Shown in pieces: positions 4,049 to 30,868 of a stretch of 64,000 nt of DNA. This DNA comes from an uncultured candidate division Zixibacteria bacterium (GTDB lineage Bacteria; Zixibacteria; MSB-5A5; UBA10806). The first letter of the stretch is position 1; each line of letters opens with the position of its first letter. The notes below the pieces were generated by a model. The model saw only the letters and a list, made by a program, of their open reading frames with translations, was not told where the DNA came from and searched no databases. The translations under genes and the position numbers were made by a program. Where the stretch lies: contig CAWDFP010000006.1 in the NCBI GenBank assembly GCA_963801605.1, forward strand, positions 768,879 to 832,878, given 5' to 3'.

Positions 4049-4510
4049 GTGAAGGTATTCACATCAGCTAAATTTCCTTTACTTCTTGCTCTTCTTACTG
4101 CGCTTCTGACCTTATCATGCGAAACCGAGGTTAAGGAGTTAACTATCAGGGTAACAAGTCGTATGTACTCTAATTTCGAAGAAGAGCATAAGGTCAAGAT
4201 GTACGAAAAATTTCAGATATCCGATACTGATCTTGAGGCCGTGGCGGTTGAATTCTATCCTGATTTCGATCTCGATACCCTGACGTTTAAGGCTTATTCC
4301 AAATCGGATACGTTAAATAATCCTGCCGTCAAGATTCTGATCATCAAAGGAAATGAGAAAAAAGAGGAAGCCTGGGCGTTTTTGCCGGGGCTGGTTCCGC
4401 ATTTCTCACCTCGTTCTTTTATTGGTTTTGAACTGATGGATTACAAAACTGGCAAGAAATATATAAAGCCGCTAAAACCCAGTCCTGAAAAAGGGAAGGA
4501 AAATGAATAA
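4049..4510 (+). CDS. Lipoprotein of unknown function, first gene of the cytochrome cluster
   Basis: GGAGG at 4039-4043, 5 nt before an in-frame GTG at 4049. N-terminus VKVFTSAKFPLLLALLTALLTLSC has a signal peptide plus a lipobox-like LSC. The track start at 3920 lies inside the putative promoter. The stop overlaps the next gene's start (ATGAATAA). Confidence 0.6.
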   Translation: MKVFTSAKFPLLLALLTALLTLSCETEVKELTIRVTSRMYSNFEEEHKVKMYEKFQISDTDLEAVAVEFYPDFDLDTLTFKAYSKSDTLNNPAVKILIIKGNEKKEEAWAFLPGLVPHFSPRSFIGFELMDYKTGKKYIKPLKPSPEKGKENE

Positions 4511-7500
4511 AAGGCTACTAATCTGCATTGCGCTTCTATTTTGTTTTGGATCATCCTCCCTTTACGCGAAGCAAAAGGAATGTTACGATTGCCATCAAAA
4601 GGCAAAAAAAACCTTCGATTCGTATAAATATTCGCACGAACCTGTCAAAAGCAAAGATTGTGCGGCCTGTCATGATTCGCATGGATTTTCGCAAAAGCTT
4701 GTTCTGAAGGCATACGATAACAGCATTTGCACCAAATGCCACAAGGAATTTGCGGCGGGCTATCCTCCCAGCACGGCAACTTATGTTCATCAGCCTATGA
4801 AAGATCGCGTTTGTTGGTCTTGTCATGAGCCTCACGGCAGTAATCTTCCATCGCTGGTGCGGGTGGTAAATGACACTTTGGTTTGCTTTATATGCCATGA
4901 CGACGTAGGCAATCTTCAAAAAAAGACAGTGGTACATGAGCCATTCGCAAAAAATCAATGTTCGGCCTGCCACAGTGCACATGACAGTCAAGTCGCAGGG
5001 CTTCTAAATAAAAATCAAAAGGAGCTATGCGCCGGATGTCACAGCTTAACCGATAAAGATTATTTGGCTAAACACTCAGTTACGGGTATCGATAAAATCG
5101 ATTGTGTTACTTGTCACAATCCTCATGCCTCCGACAAACCAGGCCTGATCGATCCACTGGCACATGCTCCGATGGTAGAGGGTAGTTGCGAAAGTTGCCA
5201 TAGTAATTTGGCCGCGGGAGATACCACAATTTCGACCACGCCCGGCGAACTATGTGTTACCTGCCATGATGATATTGGCAAGAAAATGGCCATGGCAACG
5301 CCTCATCCGCCGGCGGCGGGCGGAGAATGTCTAACCTGTCATTCGGCTCATAAGGGTAAAGAAAAATCGTTATTAGTATCCAAGCCCGGCGAACTATGCC
5401 TGGGATGTCATACCGAGTTCGCCGACACGTTAAAACTCGAAGGTGTCCATACTGCATTAAGAAATGGCGACTGCAATCTTTGTCATGATTCTCACGGTTC
5501 TCCCAATAAAAGCCTGGTTAAGGATACATCGGATAAACTCTGTCTCGATTGCCATACCGCCCTCAGGGATTCGATGTCTGTTGCAAAGACTCCTCATCCT
5601 GCCGTGGAGACCAAGGGATGTCTCGGTTGCCATCAACCGCATTATTCCAAAAAGATGCCCCTTTTGGTTGATGACGAGAAGCTGATTTGCTTACAATGCC
5701 ATGACAATCTTAAAGAAGAGAGCAAGGCCGGAACGGTTCATATTCCGTTTATGTCGGGGCAATGCGGAGCCTGCCATAATCCGCATGGTTCATCCCAGCC
5801 TAATATGTTTCGGTCAAGCGTACCGGCCGTTTGCGGGCGGTGCCACAATGACGTTATCCAGACTCTCTCTTTGCCGTCAACACACCCGCCTGCCAAAGAG
5901 GGTGAATGCCTTTCATGCCACAAACCGCACTCATCAGATTTTGCCAGGCTTTTAAAGGCAAATGAAAGTCAAAGCTGTGCCGAGTGCCATGGCGATCTGG
6001 ATGGTAAGCTCGCCGTAAAGAATCTTCATACGCCTGTTAAGAATGGCCAATGTACAGCTTGCCATAATCCTCATGGCGCCAAAGAGGCAAAGCTTCTGCC
6101 TGCAAGCGGGAAAGATCTTTGTTTATCATGTCATAAGGATAAAGCGGAAGAGCTGAAAAAAGCAGTGGTGCACCAGCCGGTCAAAGACGGGGAGTGTACC
6201 ACCTGTCATTTAGCGCATGGATCAAATGAGCGTAATAATCTTATTAAACCTGTCGCCGAGCTCTGTCAGGGTTGCCATGATCCCAGTATCGATAAAATTA
6301 AAACAGCCCACGGCGGATATGTTGTCCGAGGTTCCAACTGCGTTACCTGCCATAATCCTCATGCCTCCGATCAACCGAAACTCGTTAATAAAGTTCAACA
6401 TGCACCGTTTGCGGAAAAAAGCTGCGATTCGTGCCATAAAGGTTTAGGCGAGGGCGGCAAGGTACAGTTAGTGGCTGAAGGCGACGCTTTATGCGCTCAA
6501 TGCCACGATGAAGTCGGCAAAATTATGGGGCAGCCGAATATTCACACGCCGATTAAAATGGGCCAGGGATGTATAAGCTGTCATGATCCGCATGCCTCGC
6601 GAAACGAGAAGATGCTTATTGATAAGGTCCCGACGCTCTGCTACAATTGCCACAGCGATTTACAAACGAAATTCGAATCCGATAAAGCCCACTCGCCTGT
6701 TAAAGATGGCAACTGTTTAGCCTGCCATGAAAAACACAGTGGTCCAAACAAGGGACTTCTGATTACCAAGAGCACACAACTCTGTTATAGCTGCCACACA
6801 AAAGAAAAAGAAAAGTTTACTAAAGAGGTAGCTCACAAGCCGGTGGCCGAGGGAAATTGTTTCCAGTGTCACGATGCTCATTCTACCGATAACAATTTTA
6901 TGTTAGTAAAGCCTGAAAGCAAGCTCTGCGTAACCTGTCATTCACTGACCACGCCGGCGTTTCAGCAAGCTCATCATAATTTCCCGATGGAGACCGCCGA
7001 ATGCGCCAAGTGCCATGATCCTCATTCAACTCCGAAAGGATCGGTCGCGCTGCTTTATCCTGATCAGCATAGTCCTTTTAAGATTCGAAACTGTAATGCC
7101 TGCCATGTATCTAACAAGAGTTTCGCCACGATAAAGAGCGGTAAAGAGCTTTGCCTACAATGTCACACCAAGTCGGATGCCCTCTTTGCCAAGAAAAATG
7201 TGCACAAGGCGGTTTCGATGCCGGGCGAATGTGTCAACTGCCATTCGCCGCATACAGGATTTTCCGCAAATATCCTGTCAAAGCCGGCGGGGGATGTCTG
7301 TTTTAATTGTCACAAAAAGGCGGAATTCGAGGGTAAATTCAAACACAAACCGGCTACCGAGAACTGCTCCATTTGTCATGAAGTGCATTCATCGGATAAC
7401 GCCAGCCTTTTAAATGGTGATGATGAGATAAAGCTCTGTCTTAAGTGCCATAACGCCGATAAAACGCACATGCATCCCATGGGCAAGGATTATAAGGATC

Positions 7501-7619
7501 CGCGTAACGGGGAAAGGTTAGTCTGTACAAGTTGCCATTCGCCGCATTCGAGTAATTTTGAAAATATCCTGATGGCCGATAAACAGAGGGAGCTTTGTGT
7601 GGCCTGCCATGCTCTGTAA
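4503..7619 (+). CDS. Giant multihaem c-type cytochrome, 42 CXXCH motifs (doubled-CXXCH / c7-polymer-like)
   Basis: Signal peptide MNKRLLICIALLFCFGSSSLYA. I count 42 CXXCH in 1038 aa, about one per 25 aa. They alternate regularly between LCxxCH(D/T/S) and (E/D/N/Q)CxxCHxPH(G/S/A) units. Confidence 0.95.
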   Translation: MNKRLLICIALLFCFGSSSLYAKQKECYDCHQKAKKTFDSYKYSHEPVKSKDCAACHDSHGFSQKLVLKAYDNSICTKCHKEFAAGYPPSTATYVHQPMKDRVCWSCHEPHGSNLPSLVRVVNDTLVCFICHDDVGNLQKKTVVHEPFAKNQCSACHSAHDSQVAGLLNKNQKELCAGCHSLTDKDYLAKHSVTGIDKIDCVTCHNPHASDKPGLIDPLAHAPMVEGSCESCHSNLAAGDTTISTTPGELCVTCHDDIGKKMAMATPHPPAAGGECLTCHSAHKGKEKSLLVSKPGELCLGCHTEFADTLKLEGVHTALRNGDCNLCHDSHGSPNKSLVKDTSDKLCLDCHTALRDSMSVAKTPHPAVETKGCLGCHQPHYSKKMPLLVDDEKLICLQCHDNLKEESKAGTVHIPFMSGQCGACHNPHGSSQPNMFRSSVPAVCGRCHNDVIQTLSLPSTHPPAKEGECLSCHKPHSSDFARLLKANESQSCAECHGDLDGKLAVKNLHTPVKNGQCTACHNPHGAKEAKLLPASGKDLCLSCHKDKAEELKKAVVHQPVKDGECTTCHLAHGSNERNNLIKPVAELCQGCHDPSIDKIKTAHGGYVVRGSNCVTCHNPHASDQPKLVNKVQHAPFAEKSCDSCHKGLGEGGKVQLVAEGDALCAQCHDEVGKIMGQPNIHTPIKMGQGCISCHDPHASRNEKMLIDKVPTLCYNCHSDLQTKFESDKAHSPVKDGNCLACHEKHSGPNKGLLITKSTQLCYSCHTKEKEKFTKEVAHKPVAEGNCFQCHDAHSTDNNFMLVKPESKLCVTCHSLTTPAFQQAHHNFPMETAECAKCHDPHSTPKGSVALLYPDQHSPFKIRNCNACHVSNKSFATIKSGKELCLQCHTKSDALFAKKNVHKAVSMPGECVNCHSPHTGFSANILSKPAGDVCFNCHKKAEFEGKFKHKPATENCSICHEVHSSDNASLLNGDDEIKLCLKCHNADKTHMHPMGKDYKDPRNGERLVCTSCHSPHSSNFENILMADKQRELCVACHAL

Positions 7620-7625
7620 ACGCTA

Positions 7626-8153
7626 ATGCCCAATAGACGCCATCAAATCTTCGTAAGAGGAGGAGACCACCGCGGGCTGCTGGTGGGATCGATTATCCTG
7701 ATTCTTGTCCTGGTAGTAGTGGCATCAGGCTTGTTTTATATTTTAGCGAACAGAAATTTGGAACAGGCCACTTACCGGGCACATTTCGAGACTTTGCGGA
7801 ACACAATGCAACTGCTTCTTCCCTGGCTTCTGATAGTAAATATAATCGCGCTGATTATAGTGATAATTCTGGCTCTGTTTTTCACTCACAAGATCGCCGG
7901 ACCGGCATACCATCTAATTGTTGATCTCAAAAAGGTTAAGGATGGGGATCTAACGGTGAGAACTGCATTTCGTAAAGGTGACCGCCTCAAGGAGGTAGCA
8001 TCTGCAATGTCTGAAACGACCGAGAATCTGCGTTTAATCGTTGCGGATATTAAAAATGATGTTGCCAATATTTCGGAAGTTTGCGGAGACGAGAAAACCG
8101 TTAAGGAGAAACTCGAAAATCTCAATAGGACTTTGGGCAAATTAAAAACCTGA
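7626..8153 (+). CDS. Two-TM membrane protein with a HAMP domain and short coiled coil, no output domain
   Basis: TM1 LLVGSIILILVLVVVASGLFYIL and TM2 LLPWLLIVNIIALIIVIILALFF, followed by a HAMP-like segment THKIAGPAYHLIVDLKKVKDGDLTVRTAFRKGDRLKEVASAMSETTENL. Its stop overlaps the next start (TGATG). Confidence 0.65.
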   Translation: MPNRRHQIFVRGGDHRGLLVGSIILILVLVVVASGLFYILANRNLEQATYRAHFETLRNTMQLLLPWLLIVNIIALIIVIILALFFTHKIAGPAYHLIVDLKKVKDGDLTVRTAFRKGDRLKEVASAMSETTENLRLIVADIKNDVANISEVCGDEKTVKEKLENLNRTLGKLKT

Positions 8154-8708
8154 TGTGGCTGGTATTATTAGCCGTTTTGATGGCGGTAAATGAAAATTCA
8201 ATTTCGCCGAATATTATGGCGGAGAATATTATCGGCCATACGGGGACGGTATTTCGGGAAAACGCCGGTTTGAAATCGGATAGCTGTACCATCTGTCACA
8301 ATGACGGGGGATTTGATTTGAGCGCGACCACCAACCAACTCTGTTACCACTGCCATGACGATGTCGAATCCAAATCACTAAAGAGGTTCAAGCATACGGA
8401 CGTTGTTAACCCCCAATATCCCGAGCGTAAGTTGCGAGGGATGCCATAAGCTTCACAAAGCAGGCGCGAGACCGTTACTGACTCAAAACGAAATGGAGCT
8501 TTGCCAGGGCTGCCATCCGGAAACAAAGCAATACCTATCTCATCCGGTTGTAACCGGCTTACAGGGACAGACGATTACCGGGAGCGATGGGCGAGTTATT
8601 ACCTGTGCATCACATTGTCATGATGTTCACGGCACGGACAATAAATATTTCTGCAAATTGGAGCCGGGGCGAGAATTGTGTATTTCATGCCATAAGGATT
8701 TTGAGTAA
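8153..8708 (+). CDS. Small multihaem cytochrome (5 CXXCH + 1 CX3CH); frame broken at a C5 run (fragments 8153-8449 and 8403-8708)
   Basis: Fragment 1 carries CTICH and CYHCH. Fragment 2 carries CEGCH, CQGCH, CASHCH and CISCH. Removing one C from CCCCC (8410-8414) gives a continuous ...KHTDVVNPNIPSVSCEGCHKLH... The C-terminus parallels that of the 42-haem protein. Confidence 0.8.
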
Positions 8709-8715
8709 GATCGAT

Positions 8716-9603
8716 ATGATTAAAGAGCGTACGAAAATTTCGCATTTTCTTATTTCGATATCTTTATTGATGTTGTTTTCCGTTTCGGCTGATGCTCAAT
8801 TCAGCGAACAGCATAAAGGTTACGCATTTGAAAACCCGGGCTTTTTAAGCATCCCCGGAGCACTATCATACGATAGCGGACGACATCGTCTGGCCATTGC
8901 CGACAAAGGCCGTCAGTTAGTTTATCTATTCGACCTCACCGATCACTCCTATCAAACCCTTGGAGCGGATAAAGAATTAGGAGAGCCTGCCGGATTGGCT
9001 TTTAGCCGTCAGGGTACATTATTTATCGTCGAGGACAAAAGCCCTTATATCCTAAAGTTTCCATATTCAATCGATCAACCGGAAACGCTAAAATTCGGAG
9101 ATAGTGGCAGCCCGATTCATCCTGGAAAGTTATTTATCAAAAACGATGGCGGTATATTAATTGCCGATAAAGACGATGCTGCCATTTATTCAATTGATTC
9201 CACCGGAGTACTTACCGGGAAGATCACCGAAAAGTTAAGGCAGCCAGATGGAATTATGATCGATCTTTCTGGAGAAATCCTTGTGGCCGATAAAGGTGTT
9301 GACCCTATTTTGGTATATAGCTCAAAAGGTGAATTCGAGCGTAAACTCTCGCGGCCGGAATCTCCCACATCGCAGTTTAGCTTTGCCGCATCGGGGTTGG
9401 CAATTGATCAAAGCGGTTGGATATATACTCTGGATATGACAAGAGAGCAAATCGTTACTTTTGACCCTACCGGAGTTAATCGTTTGGAATGGGCGCCTGA
9501 AGCGCCATTTTTCCCGGAGGATATCGCAATTGACCGCTATAATACGATCTATGTTTCAGAGAGCGGCTCAGGCAGCGTTCGTATTTTTTCGAGGAGCAAC
9601 TGA
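8716..9603 (+). CDS. Secreted NHL-repeat six-bladed beta-propeller protein (copy 1)
   Basis: Start chosen at ATG 8716 (MIKERTKISHFLISISLLMLFSVSADA signal peptide), just after the upstream stop. Six NHL-type blades, e.g. PGALSYDSGRHRLAIADKGRQLVYLFD, PAGLAFSRQGTLFIVEDKSPYILKF, PDGIMIDLSGEILVADKGVDPILVY, PEDIAIDRYNTIYVSESGSGSVRIF. Confidence 0.8.
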   Translation: MIKERTKISHFLISISLLMLFSVSADAQFSEQHKGYAFENPGFLSIPGALSYDSGRHRLAIADKGRQLVYLFDLTDHSYQTLGADKELGEPAGLAFSRQGTLFIVEDKSPYILKFPYSIDQPETLKFGDSGSPIHPGKLFIKNDGGILIADKDDAAIYSIDSTGVLTGKITEKLRQPDGIMIDLSGEILVADKGVDPILVYSSKGEFERKLSRPESPTSQFSFAASGLAIDQSGWIYTLDMTREQIVTFDPTGVNRLEWAPEAPFFPEDIAIDRYNTIYVSESGSGSVRIFSRSN

Positions 9604-9605
9604 TA

Positions 9606-10478
9606 GTGCATCCGATATTGGCGGCGATAATACTCAGTGCAAACATTGGATCGTCCAGGATTGAATTTGCAGCCGTTACTCCGGGGACGATCGATGGGCT
9701 TCCTATGAATAATGCCCAATGCCTGGCAGTCAACCCGCGCACTGAGGAATTTTTGGTGGCTGACGCCCTAAACGATCGCATCCTGGTTTTTGATACCACC
9801 GGTCTGCCCGTATTTGATTTTCAGCTTGGAGCGAATCGTCATAATCCCTTTGGGATTGTAGTCGATTCATCCGATCAGATAATTGTGGGGGCGATGGATT
9901 CTCCGGTGCTTTGGATATACGATTATAGCGGCGAGTTCGTAGATAATATCGAACTTCCCGATAGCGTATATCCGGGTAGGCTTTTAGCCTTACCAGGGGG
10001 CAATCTATTGGTTATAAACCGTTCAGGTCGGGGTGCGCTGCAAATTGATCACAGCGGGAATATCGTTTCGAAATATGAGGTATCCCGGGAAGAGTGTAAA
10101 CCTTCAGGCATATGTCTCGATGCAAAAGGAAATATCATTATAGTTTCCTCGGCCGGGCCGGTTATCACTGCATTTGATCATTATGGGAAAGCGATATTTT
10201 CCTTTGGGGAACATGGCCGGGAGCCAAAAGATTTTTCCCGGCCGACAGCCGCCGCGATTGATGACCACGGCAACTATTGGATAGTTGACTCATTTAGGCA
10301 TGAGTTAAAGCTTTTTGATTCCGATCATAATTTCAAGGAGGTTTTTGGACAACGCGGCACTAATAAAGGAGAGTTTTATTTCCCGGCGGATATAAAGATA
10401 ACTTCAAGCGGTAAAATGGGGATATTGGATAAGGGGTCAGGAAGGCTTCAGATATTTAGATTGAATTATGACAAATAA
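9606..10478 (+). CDS. NHL-repeat beta-propeller protein (copy 2)
   Basis: GTG start 3 nt after the upstream stop. Blades include AQCLAVNPRTEEFLVADALNDRILVFD, PFGIVVDSSDQIIVGAMDSPVLWIYD, PSGICLDAKGNIIIVSSAGPVITAFD, PTAAAIDDHGNYWIVDSFRHELKLFD, PADIKITSSGKMGILDKGSGRLQIF. Confidence 0.8.
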   Translation: MHPILAAIILSANIGSSRIEFAAVTPGTIDGLPMNNAQCLAVNPRTEEFLVADALNDRILVFDTTGLPVFDFQLGANRHNPFGIVVDSSDQIIVGAMDSPVLWIYDYSGEFVDNIELPDSVYPGRLLALPGGNLLVINRSGRGALQIDHSGNIVSKYEVSREECKPSGICLDAKGNIIIVSSAGPVITAFDHYGKAIFSFGEHGREPKDFSRPTAAAIDDHGNYWIVDSFRHELKLFDSDHNFKEVFGQRGTNKGEFYFPADIKITSSGKMGILDKGSGRLQIFRLNYDK

Positions 10479-11451
10479 GCTAATAAAAATCGGACTTACA
10501 GTTCTATTGCTTCAGTTGCCGGCTATTGGAGGAGAATACCATCAGCAATCGGATGTTATTTGCAGCGATTGCCATACAACTCACTATAGCGAGCATGGCA
10601 CGCTGCCTGAAAAGGCCGAACCGGGCGGGCCCTTCACCGAGCTTCTCCTGGTTGGGTCAATTAATAAGCTGTGTCTATCTTGTCACGATGGCACCGACCC
10701 GGCGGCTCCCGATGTGCTTTTCCCCGTGGCGATGTATAACGGATCAGGCTCCGAATACTCGGGGGCAGGCTTTTTTTCCAATGCGGACGGCGTGATTTCC
10801 GTTAATGGCCACTCTCTCGGTGTTCCGCTTGAGATTCCCGATTCTAATCCGGCGCGGACGGTGATGCTTTCCTGCATCAGTTGTCATGACGCGCATGGCA
10901 CATCCAATTACCGAAATCTGGTTTTAAATCCGGATAGTTTGGGTATCGACATAAATCTTTCAATAGGCGCCGATGTTTTTGAAAATGTTCATCCTCAGAA
11001 TCCGCCCGAAAGAAATGCGTCTATCCAGGCGTATAAATCGGGCAACAGCGGATATGTCGATAAAATTACTTTATGGTGTACAGACTGTCATAACGCTCTG
11101 TCTGTGGATAATCCCGGAAATCCGCCGGCTCATTTTATGCGTCATCCGTCCGGAGTGAGTATGGATGGCGTTTCCTATCATCTGAGTCCGGCGCATTGGG
11201 TAAGCGGAGAAGGGGACGGGTTTGGATTAGCCACCGGGGATGGCCTCGAAGGAATCCCCAGGGTACGTTTCCAGTCTGAAGGGGCGACTGATTATAACAC
11301 TGCGATTACGCCATCAAGAACGAATCAGGTGTTTTGTTATTCATGTCATTTTGCTCATGGCGGCCCGTATGAGGCTTCATTAGTATGGCCATATAAAACC
11401 AGCGGTGCAGCGGATATGTACTCGGGGTGTCAGCAATGTCATTACAAATAA
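10468..11451 (+). CDS. Secreted hexahaem c-type cytochrome (paralog family A, member 1)
   Basis: Signal peptide ...LLLQLPAIGG, then EYHQQSDVICSDCHTTHYSEHG. Six CXXCH (CSDCH, CLSCH, CISCH, CTDCH, CYSCH, CQQCH) in 327 aa. 11-nt overlap with the upstream NHL gene. Confidence 0.9.
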   Translation: MTNKLIKIGLTVLLLQLPAIGGEYHQQSDVICSDCHTTHYSEHGTLPEKAEPGGPFTELLLVGSINKLCLSCHDGTDPAAPDVLFPVAMYNGSGSEYSGAGFFSNADGVISVNGHSLGVPLEIPDSNPARTVMLSCISCHDAHGTSNYRNLVLNPDSLGIDINLSIGADVFENVHPQNPPERNASIQAYKSGNSGYVDKITLWCTDCHNALSVDNPGNPPAHFMRHPSGVSMDGVSYHLSPAHWVSGEGDGFGLATGDGLEGIPRVRFQSEGATDYNTAITPSRTNQVFCYSCHFAHGGPYEASLVWPYKTSGAADMYSGCQQCHYK

Positions 11452-13005
11452 AAAAACGATCCGAAATATATTTGGCGACGGCGCTCACCTTAGCGGTCAT
11501 TGTGATACTGGCCGGTTTAGTGTATGCCGATTCCGGCGCATATAAGACCACCAAACACGCAGACCCACAAATCGGAGTGAACCGCGATTCCAATCTTCCT
11601 CGGGGCAATTGTAGTCAATGCCATTTGGAACATAACACCGATAATCCCAACGATTATGCTTTATTCGCCCCGCCGGATAACTCACTATGTCTTTCGTCCG
11701 GTTGCCATGAGTACGAATATCAATGGCCTCCGGGAAACTATTACTGGAGCTATCCCGGCAATGTGCCCGACTGGTATAACTCGGCCCACGGATCATCGAC
11801 AGCGCTATTCACACCGGGCGGTAACCGCGAAGTGCGGCTTTGCGTGCAATGTCATAATCCGCACGGCAAAACCGATTCAACGTATGGCGTTTACCCCTCG
11901 GAGACAAGTTTCCTCGAAGAAGGCGGCTGCTATTCTAACGGCGGATTAATAGGGCAGGGATGCCATGGGAATAATTCAAGTAACAGGCCGATCGGGGCTG
12001 CAGATATTTATTCGGAAATTCTTAAATCATCGCGGCATAATGTCGAAGCGACCACCAAGGAGCATTCCTCTGATTGGATAGCGGTGTATCCTTACGGCAG
12101 AGAATCGCGAACGCCTGTCTCAGGTTTTTTCGCTGGTGATAGGCGGCATGTCGAGTGTGTTGATTGTCACAATCCGCACAAGGCGATTACGGGAACGCAT
12201 CAGCCGGCGACAGGAGAAATCGGCGGTCCGCTTTTGGGCAATTGGGGAGTGGAACCCGGTAGCAGCGCACCCTGGACCGTCCCAATGAGCTTTAATGCTG
12301 TTGATTTTTCCTCGATATCTACGGCCAGAGAGTATCAGCTCTGCCTGAAATGTCATAGTTATTTTGCCTATGGATATAGTCCTCCCACGGGATACACCGA
12401 TATCGCCCGCGAAATAAATCCGGCTAATGCTTCATTTCATCCAATTGAGGATACAATTCGAACCAACTCCTACACATCGCCGTCCCCAAATAACAATTTT
12501 ACCGAAACGATGGAAACACCCTGGGATGATGGCCGTCACAACCAGATGACATGTTCCGATTGCCATGGTTCGGAAAACGGTGCTGATCCCAAAGGCCCGC
12601 ATGGTTCAAACCAGCCCTATATCCTCATGGCTTCGCCGGCCGCAGGCGAAACCGCTTTATGTATCAAGTGCCATAAAGCATCGGTTTATGCGCCGCCGTT
12701 TGATCCGGGCGCACAGGAGACAGGCAGTAGATTCGATTTGCAAACGACGGGAAACGATAAGGCAAATCACTACTATCATGTAACAATCATGAGACTTGGC
12801 TGCCGGCAATGTCACGCGGCACGGCAGACGGTCCCCCCCGGCAATCCCTGAACAGCGGACCCCTTATCCGATTCAGGTGGGTTCGGCTCACGGAACTAAT
12901 TTGTTTGCCGGTCTACTAAATGGTACGAATATTAATTCGTATTCTCCGGGAAGCTGCGCTCCCACTTGCCATGATCCGGTCACTTATAATGCAGGGCCGG
13001 AATAA
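11427..13005 (+). CDS. Multihaem cytochrome (7 CXXCH plus CX4CH, CX10CH and CX3CH variants); frame broken at a C7 run (fragments 11427-12851 and 12796-13005)
   Basis: N-terminal signal/anchor IYLATALTLAVIVILAGLVYA. Motifs CSQCH, CVQCH, CVDCH, CLKCH, CSDCH, CIKCH, CRQCH, plus CLSSGCH (11688-11708), C-x10-CH (11928-11966) and CAPTCH (12955-12972). Deleting one C of 12833-12839 gives ...CRQCHAARQTVPPAIPEQRTPYPIQVGSAHGTN... ATG 11436 is an alternative start. Confidence 0.8.
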
Positions 13006-14624
13006 TGCCGAGAAGATTTGTGTTTGTCATTATTATGCTGGCATCATTAAAAGCTTCTGCCTCCGATTTGAGAGGAAATCTTAATCTCAGCTATCAAGGC
13101 ACTGATGGAGGGGCGGAAAATCCCGCGTCTTCAGTGTTCAGCCAGGTTGCCAATCTTTATATTACCGACCGTATCTTTTACGGCAATGATTTAACTCTGG
13201 GAGCATTTATTTTTCACACCAAAACCTCAGGAGCGGCCAGAGGCGATTTGCGCGTTAGATATTCTGCGAATCTTTTAGGCAATAGATATTCACTTTATTC
13301 GTCGTATTCACCATACACCCTGTACCGCCCCGGAGGGGGTGCACTCAAGGTACGAGTATTTCAAGGATCTCTTACTTACCGTCCAAAATTGCTCCCGGAT
13401 ATTATGGGCAGTTACGCCTCTACTCGTCAGTATACAACCGACAAACCGCGATCCCAGGACGGGCTAAATTATTCCTGGAATTTGGGGACTCAGTTTTCCA
13501 AATCGTTTGGATCGTTCAGCGGCGTCTATCAAAGGCAGCAAACAAAAAACGATCAGGCTCTCGTTCAAACCAAACAGATAACACGAACTATTAATTTGGG
13601 ATATGATATTTCAAAACAGTATCCGGCCAATGTTAATTGGTCGGCGGGATATAATTATATAGGTACCACTACAGAGAACCCGGGTATTCAAAAGGATAAT
13701 AGCCGAACGCATATCGGCTCTTTTCAGGTTGGACGGAATTTTGGCAAATGGTTTTCAATGTCAGGGGCGACGTCTGGCCGAATTTTCGATCTTGAGCATT
13801 TGTCCAGAACAACCAGGATCGAAGATTTTCTTGCCAATGGCTCGGCCAGCATGAAGCTTCGCGAGAACATCACATTTGTACTTCTTCGAGGCTATAATAT
13901 CAGTCAGAACAAAGAAGATTCTACCACGAAAATTATAAACGATTATATAAATCTGGGGGGTGTCTGGGGATTTTCGGTTGGACGAGGCGCCGATACGCGG
14001 CTGGCGTTGTCGAGATCGTATTATTATGCTTCAATCCAGGGGCGCAATATCGTTGATAATGGCACCCTGATTTTTGATATGAATCTTTATCGCCGCACCA
14101 CCGCGACGGTCAATCTGGGAGTTGCTCGTAATCAGAAGATTCTTTCCGGCTTTGGGAGATATCAAATGACGCGTAATGTCGATATTATTTCGAGGCCGCT
14201 GAGGTCAATATCGCTAAACATGAATTACCAGTCATCCGAAACCTCAAACTCGATCAATTTCAAGAACAGCAACAGCGACAATTTTTCTGTGAATCTAACA
14301 CATATTTTGAAATATTATTTTAATTATGCGTTAACTTATACGCGGTCTGCCTTTCATTCGCAAGGGATGAATAATTTCTCGACATTATCGGTGGCATTTA
14401 ATTACCGATTGAGCAATACGCTTTCGTTACTCGGAACGTATAGCAGGCGAGATCTGGGCGAATTATCCACAGCACTTGAAAGCGGTATCGATCAAACTGT
14501 GGGAGGCAGAATTTCCTGGATTACCTCACCAAGAAGTAATTTGACTTTGAATTATTCCGTTTCCAATATTAATACCACACGTCAAACACAAGGTTTTGGC
14601 GGTTATTTTGTGACGAGCTTTTGA
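13005..14624 (+). CDS. Predicted outer-membrane beta-barrel protein (candidate porin of the conduit)
   Basis: Signal peptide MPRRFVFVIIMLASLKASA. 539 aa with no Cys and no haem motif. Amphipathic strand-like runs rich in Y/G/N/S/T/R (LNLSYQG, LTLGAFIFHT, LRVRYSANLLG, LTLNYSVSN). C-terminus GGYFVTSF ends in Phe. ATG overlaps the upstream TAA (TAATG). Confidence 0.6.
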   Translation: MPRRFVFVIIMLASLKASASDLRGNLNLSYQGTDGGAENPASSVFSQVANLYITDRIFYGNDLTLGAFIFHTKTSGAARGDLRVRYSANLLGNRYSLYSSYSPYTLYRPGGGALKVRVFQGSLTYRPKLLPDIMGSYASTRQYTTDKPRSQDGLNYSWNLGTQFSKSFGSFSGVYQRQQTKNDQALVQTKQITRTINLGYDISKQYPANVNWSAGYNYIGTTTENPGIQKDNSRTHIGSFQVGRNFGKWFSMSGATSGRIFDLEHLSRTTRIEDFLANGSASMKLRENITFVLLRGYNISQNKEDSTTKIINDYINLGGVWGFSVGRGADTRLALSRSYYYASIQGRNIVDNGTLIFDMNLYRRTTATVNLGVARNQKILSGFGRYQMTRNVDIISRPLRSISLNMNYQSSETSNSINFKNSNSDNFSVNLTHILKYYFNYALTYTRSAFHSQGMNNFSTLSVAFNYRLSNTLSLLGTYSRRDLGELSTALESGIDQTVGGRISWITSPRSNLTLNYSVSNINTTRQTQGFGGYFVTSF

Positions 14625-14638
14625 TCTCTGGAGGATAG

Positions 14639-15223
14639 ATGAAAAATAAATGCCTTATTTTGGGAATTACATTGTTATTGGCAGTCCTCGGATGCGGCGG
14701 TCCCCGGACCTTTCTCAACGGCAACACAGATTGGACATTTTATAAACAGCTTGGCGTCTTGCCATTTGTTAATCTAACAACCGATCGTTTTGCGGGCGAA
14801 AAGGTGCAGTCGGCCTTTATTACCGAACTTTTTCTTTCGGAACGCTTTCAGGTTATGGAACCAGGAGAGTTTAACTCCAGAGTAGCCCAGGAACTTAAAA
14901 CCTCGGCATCGCAGCCCGTCCAGGAACTTTCCCTTGACCAGATCAAAACGATCGGTGAAAAAACCGGAGTTCAGGGGGTAATCGAGGGTGTTGTCAGAGA
15001 ATATGGTACTACCCGAGTGGGGCAAACCGATTACCCGGTCATTAGCTTAAGTATCAGAATGATCGATGTTCCTACCGGAACAGTAATCTGGATGACATCT
15101 TTCAGCAAAAAAGGCGGCCCTAATTTGCCGATCGTATCGATTGGAGAGACGCATACGCTAAGCGAACTGACGCAGAAGATCTGCCATGACATTGTTTCTG
15201 ATTTTGTAAGCCGTGCCTTTTAA
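14639..15223 (+). CDS. Non-haem lipoprotein, paralog 1 (TolB-N/CsgG/LpoB-like 'VLPF-N' type; family uncertain)
   Basis: MKNKCLILGITLLLAVLGC lipobox. Core motifs LGVLPFVNLTTDRFAGEKVQSAFITEL, VMEPGEF, GVIEGVVREYG, ISLSIRMIDVPTGTVIWMTSFSKKG. No Cys apart from the lipobox region and one other residue, and no CXXCH. Confidence 0.6.
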   Translation: MKNKCLILGITLLLAVLGCGGPRTFLNGNTDWTFYKQLGVLPFVNLTTDRFAGEKVQSAFITELFLSERFQVMEPGEFNSRVAQELKTSASQPVQELSLDQIKTIGEKTGVQGVIEGVVREYGTTRVGQTDYPVISLSIRMIDVPTGTVIWMTSFSKKGGPNLPIVSIGETHTLSELTQKICHDIVSDFVSRAF

Positions 15224-15234
15224 GGAGAATTCGG

Positions 15235-15810
15235 ATGAAGCTTTACTCGAAAACAAACTGGATAATAATTTTATCGTTGGCGTTTTTGTCATGCGGTCCA
15301 AAGCCAAGCGTTTACCTGCAGGATAACAATGGCGCCAAAGCGTCCAAGACGCTCGCCATTTTGCCATTCGATAATTACTCCGGAAAAGAGGATGCCGGCA
15401 AGCAAGTGGCCAATGCCTTTTTGGTGGAACTTCTCAAGAATCCATCGTTTCATGTCGTAGAGCCGGGAGAAGTCGATAGGGTGATGAGGGAGGAACGGAT
15501 TCGCTCATCGAGCCAGATTGATCTGAATGCGGCTCGGCTATTTAAAGATAAGCTTTCGTCGGATTATATTTTAATTGGCGCGGTCAATGAGTTTGATTAT
15601 CTCAAAGACGGCGATCGTGATGTTCCCCTGGTGGGATTTACGGTAAGGTTGCTCGATACCTCAAATGGACAGATTGTTTGGGCGGCCAACTACAGCAGGC
15701 GGGGGGACGATCACGAGCTTGTTTTCGGCTGGGGTTTGGTAAGCTCGCTTTCGGAACTAACTCAAATCAGCGTTCGCGATGCAATTTCCCGTATAAAGAT
15801 TGCACAGTAA
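15235..15810 (+). CDS. Non-haem lipoprotein, paralog 2 (same family as 14639-15223)
   Basis: IILSLAFLSC lipobox. Aligns block by block with the upstream gene: LAILPFDNYSGKEDAGKQVANAFLVEL, VVEPGEV, ILIGAVNEFDY, VGFTVRLLDTSNGQIVWAANYSRRG, LSELTQ. Confidence 0.6.
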   Translation: MKLYSKTNWIIILSLAFLSCGPKPSVYLQDNNGAKASKTLAILPFDNYSGKEDAGKQVANAFLVELLKNPSFHVVEPGEVDRVMREERIRSSSQIDLNAARLFKDKLSSDYILIGAVNEFDYLKDGDRDVPLVGFTVRLLDTSNGQIVWAANYSRRGDDHELVFGWGLVSSLSELTQISVRDAISRIKIAQ

Positions 15811-15886
15811 ACGTAACTCATTACCTCTCTTTTGGTTAGCTTGCCGTCTTAACGGTAAGAATAACGATAATTATTTGAAATAATAC

Positions 15887-15914
15887 TTGACATAGTAATT
15901 GTTACTAATATATT
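15887..15914 (+). promoter_or_regulatory. Candidate sigma70-type internal promoter upstream of the third NHL gene
   Basis: TTGACA (15887-15892), a 16-nt spacer, then TATATT (15909-14). It sits in the only sizeable gap (186 nt) inside the cluster. Confidence 0.45.
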
Positions 15915-15996
15915 TATGACGAATATCATAAATCCCGAGAGGATTTTTGTTAAACGCTCTTGTGAAGAACTTCACTAACCTCGATGTAGAAAAAAA

Positions 15997-16945
15997 ATGA
16001 GAAGATACTTTATCCCGCTGATTTTCCTACTTGTCAACCTGGCTGTCTCGGCCGAACCGTTGGTCGAGCCCAATGTCAGTCTTGTCAGTGTGGTTAAAGG
16101 TTATTCGGATCGTAAAGCATTTGGAAATCCCACAGGAATATTCCTCGATCCCATAAAAAACGAAATCTATGTCGCCGACGCCGGTAATCATCAGATTGGG
16201 ATATTCGACAAGCGCGGCACCAGCTTGTGGACATTCAAGCACTGGGTAACGGATAGCCGGGAGGAAGGCGCCAGGATATCTGGGCGATCCTCATTCAATA
16301 GTGGTTACCAAAGACGGCGACATCATCGTCAGCGACAACAAAGCTGATTATATCGATGTTTTTGATTATCGCGGCTCACTTCAATTAAAAATATCTCCTG
16401 AAGATTATCCTGAGGCAGGCCCATTCAGAGGCGCCATTCTGGCGCTTGATAAATCAGGCAATCTTTATATCGGCACGATTCTTGAAAAATCGGAAATCCT
16501 GGTGCTCGATTCCGATTATCAGCTTATCAAGCGATTCGGGAAAAAAGGTGAGGAGCCGCAGGATTTCCAGAATATCTCGGGAATCTGGGTGAACGGTGAT
16601 GGCAACATTCTGGTCACCGATGCCCTGGGCACTCCAATTTTGAAGAAATTCAATTCCAACGGCGAATATCTCGGTGGTTTTGGAGAGCATAGTATCGAGA
16701 AAAACGATTTTTCGTTTCCAAGCGGAGTGGTGATGACCTCAAGCGGGCGGATCTGGATCGTCGATCAACTTCGACAGGTAGTCAAATGCGTGAACGATTC
16801 GGGAGCTTTCATCACTATGATCGGCGGCCTGGGATATGCTCCCGGCGATATGTGCTATCCCTCCGGAGCCGCTTCCGACGGAGATTCGACGCTGGTAGTA
16901 GTCGAGAAAAACGGTAATAGATTTCAACAATTTATCATCAGGTAA
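15997..16945 (+). CDS. Secreted NHL-repeat beta-propeller (copy 3); frame broken once (fragments 15997-16347 and 16301-16945)
   Basis: Signal peptide MRRYFIPLIFLLVNLAVSA. Blades PTGIFLDPIKNEIYVADAGNHQIGIFD, then after a +1 shift near 16250-16290 (second frame open from 16250: ...APGYLGDPHSIVVTKDGDIIVSDNKADYIDVFD), ISGIWVNGDGNILVTDALGTPILKKF, PSGVVMTSSGRIWIVDQLRQ. Confidence 0.75.
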
Positions 16946-17059
16946 TAAAATGATTAACCCTAAAGTAAATATGCCAGAAGGAGGTGGTACGGTAGTTACA
17001 ATTTTCACAACTCAGATTGTTATTACACGCACTTATTATCAAATTCGAGAGGTTTTGTA

Positions 17060-18109
17060 ATGAAGAAAATTTTCGCACTAACTCTGGCAATGGTATTCGT
17101 TTTCGCGATGACGGCATTCGCCGGTGAATACCACATGGGAAGCTCATTGAGCTGCTACCAGTGCCATTCAATGCACTATAGCCAACAGCATATGTTTGGC
17201 TATGCTCACGAGGATAGTATTCCGTTCCTCGGCCCCGATGGACCATACAACAAGCTGCTTCGTTCGGATGTCAACGATCTTTGCCTTTCCTGCCATGACG
17301 GGGGAGATGTCATAGATGTTTACGGCGTATCCGAAGTCAACGCGACAGTTAACCGCGAGGGCGGTTTCCTTAGCAGAGTCGGCGACGGCAATGAGAATCA
17401 CGGCCATACGCTCGGAGCCACCAGCACTGCTCCCGGTAGCCTTCCAGCTTGGAGCCCGGATCAGACAGAGGGTCTTACCTGCGTCAATTGCCATAGCGCA
17501 CACGGCAGCGCCGGTTCAGGGAATCCGGATCAGGTTAAGGGTCAGTGGAGAAACCTGACCAGGAATCCTGGCAACGGAACCAACAGATACGTCAACTACG
17601 AAAAATCCAGCGAGCCCGTAAACACGACCCGCGACATCAAGTGGAGATCCTCCAGCGCCCACGACGCCGGCGCTTATGAAACCGACAATGTCGATTTTTA
17701 TGAGCCCGTGTCATCTGAATCCCGTTACGGCGCCTGGTGCCAGGGATGCCATACCAATTTCCATGGTAATTCCTCAAGCGACAATATGGCTAATGCGGAC
17801 GGATGGATCCGTCACCCGACAGCCGACGTTAATCTAGGGACCTCTGGCGCAACCGATTTTGCATCCCATGCTTATCGTCCGCAAGTGATGAGCCCGACAG
17901 GCAACTGGGGCACCCAGGGCGATTCCACCTGGACTCCGCCGACCGATCTTACCCCGACTTGCGTTACTTGCCATAAAGGCCACGGCAACGGTAATGCGTT
18001 CGGTCTCGTTTATATGGATGGCCGCCATCCGCGTACAGAAAACGGCGATGCGGTATCTACCAAGATTACTGCTACCTGCAAAATCTGTCACAGCCAGGGC
18101 GGTTATTAA
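17060..18109 (+). CDS. Secreted hexahaem c-type cytochrome (paralog family A, member 2)
   Basis: Signal peptide MKKIFALTLAMVFVFAMTAFA, then GEYHMGSSLSCYQCHSMHYSQQH. Six CXXCH (CYQCH, CLSCH, CVNCH, CQGCH, CVTCH, CKICH) in 349 aa. RBS GAGAGG. Followed by a strong terminator. Confidence 0.9.
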   Translation: MKKIFALTLAMVFVFAMTAFAGEYHMGSSLSCYQCHSMHYSQQHMFGYAHEDSIPFLGPDGPYNKLLRSDVNDLCLSCHDGGDVIDVYGVSEVNATVNREGGFLSRVGDGNENHGHTLGATSTAPGSLPAWSPDQTEGLTCVNCHSAHGSAGSGNPDQVKGQWRNLTRNPGNGTNRYVNYEKSSEPVNTTRDIKWRSSSAHDAGAYETDNVDFYEPVSSESRYGAWCQGCHTNFHGNSSSDNMANADGWIRHPTADVNLGTSGATDFASHAYRPQVMSPTGNWGTQGDSTWTPPTDLTPTCVTCHKGHGNGNAFGLVYMDGRHPRTENGDAVSTKITATCKICHSQGGY

Positions 18110-18121
18110 TAGTCCGCTTGA

Positions 18122-18155
18122 AGGAGGGTGTCTCGCACACCCTCCTTTTTCTTTT
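18122..18155 (+). terminator. Rho-independent terminator after the hexahaem cytochrome
   Basis: AGGAGGGTG (18122-18130), loop TCTCGCA, CACCCTCCT (18138-18146), followed by TTTTCTTTT. Confidence 0.8.
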
Positions 18156-18179
18156 CATACTTTTACTGCGGGATAAATA

Positions 18180-19298
18180 ATGATCAAACACACAATTGTA
18201 TTTCTTTTTGCGATGATTTCTCTTTCTACCGCCGGAACTATTTTACAGAATGACGGTTTCCCGCACAAACCCGGTTCCGGTTATCAACCCGGCGCAATAC
18301 TCGATACGCCGCCCTTTACGCCAGGTTATCACAATGGCAACGACATGGTTTGCTCAGATTGCCATATTATGCATGCCTCTATGCAGCATGATTATGGTAC
18401 CCCTGATTCTTATACCTATCCTTATAACGTTGAGCCTCCCGCAAATCATCTTCTTAAGGCTGCGAACGCCTTAACGCTGTGTCTGTCCTGTCACAACGAT
18501 AAGGTTGGTATTCCCGATGTTGTCGGCGCCGACGTCAATGGAGGGAGTGATCGTGCGGCGGGACAGCTTGGCGAAGTTGGCGAAATCAACAACAACGGGC
18601 ATAATATTGCTCCTGATCCGGGGGACCTCTGCAATCGATGCCATTTTGGAGGGGAGTTTCACACCGCTTCTGTAGAGTGTATCGATTGTCATGCTCCACA
18701 TGGTACCCGGTATTATCGCAATTTACAGTGGGCGTCATGGCCGGGTCATCAGCCACCTATTGTCGCTTTTGTCAGGCCTGGTTCGCAGGGACTTGACAAA
18801 TATCAAACTGCCAATGTTCGATACGGCGCTCCCGGTTATGGACGTGGTCAGGCGACCTGGAGAGAGGTAACTAATATCTGCATTGATTGTCATCATACCC
18901 TGGTTGACGCCTCGCCCAACGGTGGACGTTATACCAATCCGGAGCTTGATGATCATTGGAATAGACACCCCGGTACAAATAGCGAAGACGGCGCATATCG
19001 GCCTATTGGCGGTTTACCGGATGATCCCGATGTTTACACCGATCCTCAGAATTGGGTAAGCGGTGAAGGTTCCGAATTTTCTGTTGGACGAGTGCCTTAT
19101 ATCGTAACCGAGGCTCACTCATTTCAACAGGCGGACGTTGTTTCCACCAGTAACGAGGTTTTCTGTCTTTCCTGTCATAGCGCTCACGGCACCGATAAGC
19201 CGTTTGGTTTACGATGGAATCCGACCAATAACTCAACTCCACTGGCTACTGCTGGATGCCGTCAATGCCATAACAATACAGCGAGCAATATTCCATAG
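18180..19298 (+). CDS. Secreted heptahaem c-type cytochrome (paralog family A, member 3)
   Basis: Signal peptide MIKHTIVFLFAMISLSTA. Seven CXXCH (CSDCH, CLSCH, CNRCH, CIDCH x2, CLSCH, CRQCH) in 372 aa. Shares ...GYHNGNDMVCSDCHIMHASMQH and NNNGHNI blocks with the other two family members. Confidence 0.9.
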   Translation: MIKHTIVFLFAMISLSTAGTILQNDGFPHKPGSGYQPGAILDTPPFTPGYHNGNDMVCSDCHIMHASMQHDYGTPDSYTYPYNVEPPANHLLKAANALTLCLSCHNDKVGIPDVVGADVNGGSDRAAGQLGEVGEINNNGHNIAPDPGDLCNRCHFGGEFHTASVECIDCHAPHGTRYYRNLQWASWPGHQPPIVAFVRPGSQGLDKYQTANVRYGAPGYGRGQATWREVTNICIDCHHTLVDASPNGGRYTNPELDDHWNRHPGTNSEDGAYRPIGGLPDDPDVYTDPQNWVSGEGSEFSVGRVPYIVTEAHSFQQADVVSTSNEVFCLSCHSAHGTDKPFGLRWNPTNNSTPLATAGCRQCHNNTASNIP

Positions 19299-19370
19299 AG
19301 GAAATTAGAAGTATTGGAGTAGAGAGAAACTACCCGTAATTCGATTTTAATTAATAAGAAATTTTTGCTT

Positions 19371-19407
19371 AATAAGGTATCCATCCGGGTACCTTATTAT
19401 GTTTTTA
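19371..19407 (+). terminator. Rho-independent terminator closing the cytochrome cluster
   Basis: AATAAGGTATCC (19371-19382), loop ATCC, GGGTACCTTATT (19387-19398) with one mismatch, then ATGTTTTT. Confidence 0.6.
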
Positions 19408-30460: not shown

Positions 30461-30868
30461 GTCTCCTCCCAAGAAAACATCGTTTTTACATTCGAAAAAA
30501 TATTTTAGAATCACATTTTATTTGCGAACATGCTACAAAGAAGTATTATTTCGCTATTGGCTATTTCCCCGTATCCCAAAAGAGCTTGCAGAATAAATAA
30601 TTGCACCAATAATATAATGCCTCGTCTCAGGAAAACAAGCATTTTATGCTGATTTTATTAGCCGCCAAAGGCATGTGAATGTGTATAAGATATTAATTTA
30701 TAAGGCTTTATAAAACGAAAACTGGGCATGGTACAAATGTAGAAACAAAACACCTCGTCTAAAAAAAACCTGATTAGTCTTGGCTTAGTTCAGAGATTTA
30801 ATTTAGAATAGGATATACCCTGTTTCCAGCTTGCAAACGGCGCGATGACGGATCGGCATCGCTTAATA

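Follow-up and report, generated by a model that had tools for sequence, protein, structure and literature searches.

A predicted OmcS-type cytochrome assembly cluster in an uncultured Zixibacteria bacterium, a divergent variant of the omcS/osc system

The nanowire cytochrome OmcS of Geobacter sulfurreducens (GSU2504) is encoded in the 'osc' (omcS companion) operon, GSU2505-GSU2493, together with OmcT and OscC-K (bioRxiv 10.1101/2025.11.06.686851; PMC13194489). The operon combines an NHL protein (GSU2505), omcT, the OmcS-like oscC (GSU2501) and an eight-gene block, GSU2500-2493, that is tied to nanowire maturation and secretion (bioRxiv 10.1101/2025.11.06.686851). The annotation of GSU2505, beside omcS, as an NHL protein is also given elsewhere (PMC9070056). 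These reports tie OscD to filament morphology, propose OscE/F/G for secretion and OscH for folding, list oscI (GSU2495) as a 26-haem cytochrome, and credit the description of the operon and a partial genetic test of it to Shen et al. 2025 (Cell Chem Biol 32:239). The barrel and lipoproteins of osc are proposed to secrete or mount a cytochrome filament, and not to sheath a periplasmic cytochrome (PMC13194489; bioRxiv 10.1101/2025.11.06.686851). OmcS polymerises through an inter-subunit His-haem bond (PMC12307469), and recent papers call the mechanism of nanowire secretion speculative (PMC12307469; bioRxiv 10.1101/2025.10.22.684050). Here we describe a 14-gene cluster of multihaem cytochromes, NHL propellers, an outer-membrane barrel and lipoproteins from an uncultured Zixibacteria bacterium (contig CAWDFP010000006.1). 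It lies in a stretch of 64,000 nucleotides that was analysed as a whole and is called the window below. Judging from homology and gene order, the cluster is a divergent variant of the omcS/osc nanowire assembly system described in 2025, and not a new class of conduit.

The cluster spans positions 4049-19298 (about 15 kb) and consists of 14 open reading frames (ORFs), all on the + strand; coordinates below refer to this strand unless stated otherwise. A sequence-only reading of the window had proposed an uncharacterised trans-envelope electron conduit that may form a new class. Its inventory is accurate. The ORF coordinates confirm the 14 co-directional genes and the junctions listed between them, and the count of 73 canonical CXXCH motifs, distributed over the six cytochromes as 42+5+6+7+6+7, is exact. 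The three NHL propellers, the Cys-free protein of 539 residues and the three haem-free lipoproteins (lipoboxes LTLSC, AVLGC and AFLSC) were also found as described, as was the absence of a lipobox from every cytochrome of the cluster. What did not survive is the claim of novelty, as the core of the cluster is homologous to the omcS-companion cluster of Geobacter. The term 'trans-envelope electron conduit' is partly justified: this is a cluster for extracellular electron transfer (EET) built around a real outer-membrane barrel, but 'trans-envelope' is overstated because the cluster encodes no inner-membrane quinol oxidoreductase. Within the 64-kb window we found no gene for an inner-membrane quinol oxidoreductase or dehydrogenase, for cytochrome maturation or for type II secretion.

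The relationship to OmcS is evident in three small cytochromes. The first, referred to here as mini-OmcS, is a hexahaem protein of 327 residues (10468-11451) whose mature N-terminus reads GEYH...CSDCHTTH. The second (17060-18109, 349 residues) is 29% identical to the first and has the six motifs and six histidines of OmcS. The third (18180-19298, 372 residues) also belongs to the OmcS family but has gained a seventh, inserted CXXCH; it shares 30% identity with the first (E = 1e-27) and has a counterpart in only some of the Zixibacteria loci (L006 and L007). A profile of the hexahaem family (74 sequences), compared with the PDB sequences, matched OmcS best (6ef8_A, E = 1.4e-14, 56.8 bits) and OmcE second. 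The alignment to OmcS starts at mature residue 1 (FHSGGVAECEGCHTMH against GEYHQQSDVICSDCHTTH). Single-sequence queries with the 10468-11451 and 18180-19298 products gave no significant match among the PDB sequences. Pairwise phmmer comparisons of an OmcS orthologue with the three window paralogues gave E-values of 2.8e-10, 8.7e-8 and 1.3e-7.

Six CXXCH motifs are collinear and invariant in an alignment of three OmcS orthologues, the three window paralogues and the proteins of two further loci, L010 and L011, and the six distal histidines are likewise invariant. Across all 74 family sequences, H25, H39, H115, H143, H226 and H297 do not vary. The three small cytochromes of the window are, by this alignment, homologues of OmcS in which all twelve haem ligand positions are conserved. 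His39 of the window protein aligns with His16 of OmcS, within CHTMH/CHTTH. His16 reportedly ligates haem 5 of the next filament subunit (Wang et al. 2019). An AlphaFold2 model of the 327-residue protein, computed from the 74-sequence alignment, has a predicted local distance difference test score (pLDDT) of 72 and low-confidence N-terminal stretches; Foldseek found a single PDB match for it, 6ef8_A of the OmcS nanowire (E = 4.7e-3, prob 0.93, TMq 0.41). The hexahaem family ranges over Zixibacteria, Planctomycetes, 'Deltaproteobacteria', Poribacteria, Abyssubacteria, Anaeromyxobacteraceae and metagenome-assembled genomes (MAGs) of the Fibrobacteres-Chlorobi-Bacteroidetes (FCB) group.

As the reference for osc we used 79 metagenomic loci with OmcS orthologues of 53-70% identity, gathered by a metagenome scan with an OmcS fragment. 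A sweep of these loci with hidden Markov models and phmmer revealed a common order: an NHL gene, one or more OmcS-like genes, about 4 kb of further sequence, a lipoprotein B-like gene, a lipoprotein C-like gene, about 2 kb, and a giant cytochrome gene. The lipoprotein was present in 13 of the 21 loci with enough downstream DNA, and an NHL gene lay just upstream in 23 of 37; three other loci with OmcS-like anchors were orphan or atypical. One of the OmcS loci, L022, was dissected gene by gene. It encodes an NHL protein, the OmcS orthologue, a YNCE-type propeller lipoprotein of 471 residues, a barrel of 723 residues, an LpoB/GNA1162-like lipoprotein, a double LpoB-like lipoprotein, a SurA-like isomerase and a giant cytochrome. 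This set matches the roles of OscD, OscE/F/G, OscH and OscI, as given in the published accounts. The barrel, two lipoproteins, giant cytochrome and NHL protein of the window are homologous to proteins encoded beside true OmcS orthologues, and their relative order is the same.

The barrel (13005-14624) is a Cys-free protein of 539 residues with about 28 strands, no plug and a C-terminal Phe, and corresponds to OscE. Its AlphaFold2 model, based on a 15-sequence alignment, is all-beta with short loops and no extra domain (pLDDT 81.6), which supports the original proposal of a barrel-like outer-membrane protein. Searches of the PDB with Foldseek returned generic large barrels only, including MtrB (6r2q_B, TMq 0.44), LptD (0.45-0.48), TonB-dependent receptors and FimD, and no Pfam or NCBIfam model matched. 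Membership of an unrelated family such as the ushers or LptD, which would have counted against the original proposal, is therefore not indicated. The family is rare. A word index of 5.8 billion proteins yielded 15 relatives, and 62 came from a profile search run in full against 1.84 billion cluster representatives. When 61 window-type barrels were compared with 17 barrels from OmcS loci, hhalign aligned the two profiles over 512 columns (99.2%, E = 5.6e-20). Broader profiles of this kind were needed, as hhalign comparisons of the single-profile type were not significant against either an OmcS-locus barrel or the barrel of a Poribacteria locus. The OmcS-locus barrels (L022 12612-14783 and 16 others) are about 720-770 residues long and contain an extra domain of about 170 residues that has no equivalent in the window barrel.

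Two lipoprotein genes follow the barrel gene. Their products, of 194 residues (14639-15223, OscF-like) and 191 residues (15235-15810, OscG-like), are paralogues with 31% identity. In reciprocal phmmer searches, the first lipoprotein of L022 pairs with the 14639-15223 product (E = 3.3e-26) and the second with the 15235-15810 product (E = 1.8e-14); the post-barrel lipoproteins were matched in 17 OmcS loci. A profile of 21 such lipoproteins matched the PelC structures 5t11, 5t10, 9h80_C and 5t0z with E-values from 6.9e-14 to 7.1e-12, and gave weaker matches to GNA1162 (3.8e-8), LpoB (0.03) and CsgG (0.19). We therefore assign the two proteins, by profile similarity, to the PelC family. In the Pel system, PelC assembles into a ring that sits beneath the PelB barrel. 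The match to PelC, combined with the position of the genes directly after a barrel gene, suggests by analogy a lipoprotein ring docked under the barrel. The abstract of Shen and co-workers reportedly words OscEFG as 'channel-like', which PelC-like lipoproteins would fit. In several OmcS loci (L014 11717-16240, L043 15419-20170 and L032 15172-18177), an OscG-like domain heads an ORF of 1000-1580 residues, with Calx-beta repeats in L014; these long ORFs may represent a fusion to a large periplasmic or surface protein, or an artefact of reading from stop to stop.

The OscI-like giant cytochrome (4503-7619) has 1038 residues and 42 CXXCH motifs, arranged in repeated MtrA/DmsE-like modules, and is predicted to be periplasmic. 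It passes the cut-off of the DmsE/MtrA model TIGR03508 with 443 bits, in ten stretches and as a fourfold repeat, and it matches MtrA (6r2q_A) with E = 4.4e-14. In phmmer searches it matches the giant cytochromes downstream of OmcS orthologues (E = 1e-116 to 1e-152). The gene is preceded by that of lipoprotein A (4049-4510; 153 residues, GTG start, lipobox LTLSC), which has no match in Pfam, NCBIfam or the PDB sequences. Of the nine Zixibacteria-type loci, eight have lipoprotein A upstream of the giant cytochrome, as does the Poribacteria locus; the contigs of L001 and L009 end short of this position.

Three genes encode paralogous NHL propellers. The first (8716-9603, 295 residues) has a signal peptide and matches Pfam NHL. 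The second (9606-10478, 290 residues; Pfam NHL, E = 1.4e-15) is the best match of the NHL protein found just upstream of OmcS orthologues (E = 6.3e-17 with the NHL protein of L022). The third (15997-16945) has 315 residues after repair of a 1-nucleotide insertion near 16279, and intact orthologues of 314-322 residues are present in L001-L005. A connection between propellers and barrel is provided by the Poribacteria locus L011 (MAG GCA_016215705.1), where the barrel gene (12831-15314) encodes 827 residues and carries an inserted six-bladed NHL propeller. With broad profiles, residues 11-199 of this protein align to residues 2-188 of the window barrel (98%) and residues 493-777 to residues 197-476 (94%), which places the insertion in the hairpin between strands β9 and β10. 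Barrels of this kind usually have a periplasmic N-terminus; should that hold here, the hairpin would be an extracellular loop. Docking of NHL propellers on the barrel, probably at its outer mouth, is what the fusion argues for.

Between mini-OmcS and the barrel lies the gene of a cytochrome (11427-13005) that is translationally coupled to the barrel gene. It had been read as a seven-haem protein. The seven CXXCH motifs are there, but the ORF, once repaired, runs on to 13005 and encodes 525 residues with three further sites, CX4CH, CX10CH and CX3CH. An alignment over three phyla shows ten invariant Cys...Cys-His sites and eleven additional invariant histidines. The CX4CH and CX10CH sites of Zixibacteria are plain CXXCH in L010 and L011, and the C-terminal CX3CH is common to all. 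The product carries a signal peptide, lacks a lipobox and has no significant match among the PDB sequences. Haem attachment at the unusual motifs might depend on a lyase specific to them; the window shows no such gene.

The position of this decahaem protein invites another explanation, a restatement of the original proposal in terms of the parts now identified, in which the cluster is a porin-cytochrome conduit that forms no filaments: the decahaem protein would thread the barrel as MtrA threads MtrB, the OmcS-like proteins would act as monomeric terminal reductases or oxidases at the surface, and the lipoproteins and propellers would only stabilise the assembly. The decahaem and barrel genes do overlap (TAATG at 13003-13007), and the two are neighbours in each of the three phyla; the barrel is plug-less, with about 28 strands, and its best fold matches include MtrB; the 42-haem protein resembles MtrA/DmsE; and OmcS alone among the Geobacter paralogues is known to form wires (bioRxiv 10.1101/2025.11.06.686851). 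However, the decahaem protein scores 30 bits on TIGR03508, against a cut-off of 192, and its haem density is low (10 per 525 residues). The barrel is homologous to those of OmcS loci, where no cytochrome gene separates OmcS from the barrel, the inter-subunit histidine of OmcS is invariant in 74 family members, and the PelC-like lipoproteins point to an export channel. We consider such a conduit unlikely.

Several cytochromes of the cluster also give weak, partial matches to models and structures of the NrfB, NrfH and NrfA type, as might be expected of a periplasmic multihaem enzyme system for the reduction of nitrite, hydroxylamine, tetrathionate or sulfite that has no role at the outer membrane. 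The NCBIfam equivalogs for Nrf-, Hao- and Otr-type enzymes all score far under their cut-offs, however (NrfB, for example, with 68 against 167 bits), in agreement with the sequence-only reading. No CXXCK or other signature of a catalytic haem was found, and all haem sites pair with a conserved histidine. With a barrel, outer-membrane lipoproteins and homology to OmcS all present, we regard this explanation as effectively refuted.

The gene order of the cluster recurs in every recovered relative of the barrel, more than chance would give, and the synteny that the sequence-only reading made a test of its proposal is borne out. The four genome matches of the barrel are all Zixibacteria MAGs. Outside this phylum, L010 (a 'Deltaproteobacteria' MAG) and L011 have the order NHL, NHL, hexahaem, decahaem, barrel, two lipoproteins and giant cytochrome. 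In both, genes for a HAMP histidine kinase and for periplasmic binding proteins of the phosphonate-binding type come after the cluster (L010 18674-20540, L011 18881-20626); this neighbourhood is conserved in the two non-Zixibacteria versions and has no known link to cytochromes. A wide phylogenetic distribution of osc is reportedly claimed by Shen and colleagues. Our literature search, which left the phyla listed by Shen et al. 2025 unchecked, found no link of Zixibacteria to OmcS or osc.

Two genes of the cluster remain. The pentahaem cytochrome (8153-8708) has five CXXCH and one CX3CH in 184 residues after repair and is kin to the repeats of the 42-haem protein. The small protein encoded at 7626-8153 (175 residues) had been described as a HAMP-only membrane protein. 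It does have two transmembrane segments, but its HAMP-like linker gives only weak, sub-threshold matches to the HAMP regions of methyl-accepting chemotaxis proteins and histidine kinases. It is accessory, being present in four of the nine Zixibacteria-type loci (L002, L005, L007 and L008) and absent in L001, L003/L004 and L006; L009 stops before the position.

Taken together, we consider it probable that the cluster encodes a Zixibacteria-type osc system that exports, mounts and wires OmcS-type cytochromes at the cell surface. All parts would be exported by Sec, with haem received in the periplasm. The two PelC-like lipoproteins may be arranged as a ring beneath the ~28-strand barrel, at the periplasmic side of the outer membrane, and the mini-OmcS proteins would pass through the barrel channel or assemble on it. 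They may polymerise via the conserved His39, the equivalent of OmcS His16. The 42-haem chain could carry electrons across the periplasm, which it may span, possibly tethered by lipoprotein A, and the decahaem protein, located at the barrel or within it, would connect this chain with the cytochromes of the surface. The NHL propellers may occupy the mouth of the barrel and act there as a cap or as a platform for assembly. Electrons might flow in either direction, for mineral reduction or for electron uptake.

Several points weigh against a Zixibacteria-type osc system. The comparison with osc was made through metagenomic OmcS loci and not with GSU2493-2505 itself, and the Osc letters were assigned from gene order and from second-hand descriptions of Shen et al. 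2025. The YNCE-type propeller lipoprotein of L022 (OscD-type) has no matching ORF in the window, where the decahaem gene occupies its position, and neither does the SurA-like isomerase of L022 (OscH-type), which could be encoded elsewhere in the genome. The decahaem protein in turn has no counterpart in any OmcS locus, and the role given to it is a guess. The window cytochromes are about 100 residues shorter than OmcS, which has three insertions totalling about 100 residues. In the model of the 327-residue hexahaem, residues 18-63, 74-86 and 96-108 have pLDDT below 50, and the TM-score to OmcS is just 0.41. Given the length of mini-OmcS and the weakness of this model, filament formation is not established.

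Finally, three of the 14 genes are interrupted, and the cluster could be decaying, with the pentahaem, decahaem and NHL3 genes as pseudogenes. Single-nucleotide insertions break the pentahaem gene (CCC run at 8420-8422), the decahaem gene (C7 run at 12833-12839) and the NHL3 gene (near 16279), so that two of the three lie in homopolymer runs. Removal of one base from each restores proteins of 184, 525 and 315 residues that match intact orthologues: the repaired decahaem protein and the L005 orthologue share 70% identity across their full alignment, and the lengths of the other two agree with those of intact L005 orthologues (187 residues for the pentahaem protein). The gene halves stay open and conserved on both sides of each break. 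A fourth break of the same kind, at 29408/29414, splits an unrelated gene of the window, that of a gingipain-like C25 peptidase (25905-30514, - strand; ORFs 30514..29414 and 29408..25905), which suggests residual 1-nucleotide indel errors throughout the assembly; the length of the contig, 1.92 Mb, suggests a long-read assembly with errors of this type. The three frameshifts are probably assembly errors, and a decayed, non-functional cluster appears improbable.

The shared features of Zixibacteria, Poribacteria and the 'Deltaproteobacteria' MAG allow a bolder view, which we regard as possible though well short of probable: these genomes may hold a distinct, possibly older branch of osc. The branch would be composed of mini-OmcS, the decahaem protein, a plain ~28-strand barrel, two PelC-like lipoproteins and the 42-haem chain. 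Its export channel would double as a conduit, with the decahaem protein in the barrel wiring the 42-haem chain to a new and smaller kind of OmcS-type filament, and the NHL propellers would serve as an extracellular platform, as the Poribacteria propeller-in-barrel fusion suggests. If true, a cytochrome-nanowire system would be assigned to the FCB group for the first time, and it would offer a minimal model of nanowire secretion and anchoring.

As a variant of osc more generally, the cluster bears on the export, anchoring and electron supply of cytochrome nanowires. Without the barrel insert, OscD and OscH, the conserved core narrows to an OmcS-like protein, the barrel, two PelC-like lipoproteins, the giant cytochrome and an NHL protein. 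The PelC-PelB channel offers a possible structural analogy for the arrangement of lipoproteins and barrel, the Poribacteria fusion places an NHL propeller on the barrel, and the decahaem protein at the channel is a candidate for the electron link between periplasm and surface. With this variant, the range of OmcS-type systems would come to include Zixibacteria, a group of uncultured bacteria for which a part in the cycling of iron in the subsurface has already been suggested.

The genes of the cluster are tightly packed. The stop of the lipoprotein A gene overlaps the start of the 42-haem gene by 8 nucleotides (4503-4510), and further overlaps of 1, 11 and 25 nucleotides occur at 8153, 10468 and 11427. 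Gaps measure 6 nucleotides at 7619/7626, 7 at 8708/8716 and 2 at 9603/9606, and gaps of 14 and 11 nucleotides precede the two post-barrel lipoprotein genes. The single long internal gap, of 186 nucleotides (15811-15996), had been called promoter-like. It contains the best sigma-70-like match on the + strand between 3000 and 20000 (15887-15914; TTGACA-16-TATATT, 11/12), a consensus match only. The terminators proposed near 18122 and 19371 coincide with the two strongest terminator-like hairpins of the region, one at 18120-18148 (12-bp stem, then a T run) and one at 19370-19399 (13-bp stem) that closes the cluster. A scan for sigma-54 promoters gave 32 matches against 26 expected, none of them well placed. 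A PAS-LuxR-type regulator gene lies upstream of the cluster in divergent orientation (1297-2184, - strand). In L005 (16589-19514) and L010 (1-1009), a histidine kinase and a sigma-54 activator adjoin the cluster, like GSU2506/2507 beside omcS in Geobacter.

The remainder of the window encodes PAS and histidine-kinase regulators, Pst/PhoU proteins, C25 peptidases and a TonB receptor. Among the regulators is a hybrid sensor kinase of 2434 residues (33134-40438) that combines HisKA, HATPase and two receiver domains with a set of eight or nine PAS domains. A second large C25 peptidase (51590-56455, - strand; 1621 residues) has a propeptide and a Nidogen-like domain; this peptidase, and the CarboxypepD_reg domains of the other, fit an FCB-group organism with secreted proteases.

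Several known systems share parts of this architecture. Like PCC3 of Sideroxydans and Gallionella, the cluster combines a very long, predicted periplasmic multihaem cytochrome with a porin and putative extracellular cytochromes; the 21-27-haem cytochrome of PCC3 has been argued to suffice for spanning the periplasm. PCC3 differs in having no OmcS-like proteins, NHL propellers or PelC-like lipoproteins. Multihaem cytochromes interleaved with NHL propellers are also found in Uet of 'Ca. Tenderia electrophaga' and in DFE_0448-0451 and DFE_0461-0465 of Desulfovibrio ferrophilus, and Uet has a predicted 28-strand barrel as well. By their descriptions, on which we base this comparison, Uet differs in its triheme c7-type and undecahaem cytochromes, cupredoxin and isomerase, and no PelC-like lipoprotein pair or OmcS homologue is reported for Uet or the DFE clusters. 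A 2026 preprint on EET clusters from peat appears not to describe the present system; it leaves NHL propellers and lipoproteins unmentioned.

With MtrCAB, PioAB and MtoAB, the cluster shares a large plug-less barrel encoded beside a decahaem gene, MtrA/DmsE-like modules (here in the 42-haem protein) and a predicted transfer of electrons across the outer membrane. The differences from MtrCAB, Geobacter Pcc and Ext noted in the sequence-only reading are real: there is no lipoprotein cytochrome and no match of the barrel to the MtrB or OmbB families. The barrel has no MtrB/PioB-family match in Pfam or NCBIfam, the adjacent decahaem protein is outside the DmsE/MtrA family, and no OmcA/MtrC-type lipoprotein cytochrome was found, the TIGR03507 model being matched by the 42-haem protein only and below its cut-off (105 against 209). 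Mtr systems, for their part, contain neither PelC-like lipoproteins nor NHL propellers. The Mtr-like cluster of the RBG-1 Zixibacteria (Castelle et al. 2013) is a different locus, with PetAB and monohaem cytochromes.

The likeness to PelB-PelC (5T10, 5T11, 5T0Z, 9H80) lies in the two lipoproteins, which match PelC and are encoded right after an outer-membrane barrel. In contrast to that system, the predicted cargo is a haem protein instead of a polysaccharide, the size of the barrel bears no relation to that of the PelB porin domain, and two paralogous lipoproteins are present instead of one.

The closest counterpart is osc, from which the cluster nevertheless departs in several respects. It has a decahaem protein with CX4CH, CX10CH and CX3CH sites in place of the OscD-type propeller lipoprotein, and no OscH-type prolyl isomerase. 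Its barrel lacks the insert of about 170 residues, and its OmcS-like proteins fall about 100 residues short of OmcS. There are 42 haems in the giant cytochrome, compared with 26 in GSU2495, and a dedicated lipoprotein is encoded upstream of it. The NHL genes number three, a pentahaem protein and a HAMP-like protein are additional, and the host belongs to Zixibacteria and not to Desulfuromonadia. Shared with osc are several paralogous hexahaem proteins of the OmcS family, an NHL gene upstream, a large barrel followed by two related lipoproteins, and a giant MtrA-like periplasmic cytochrome.

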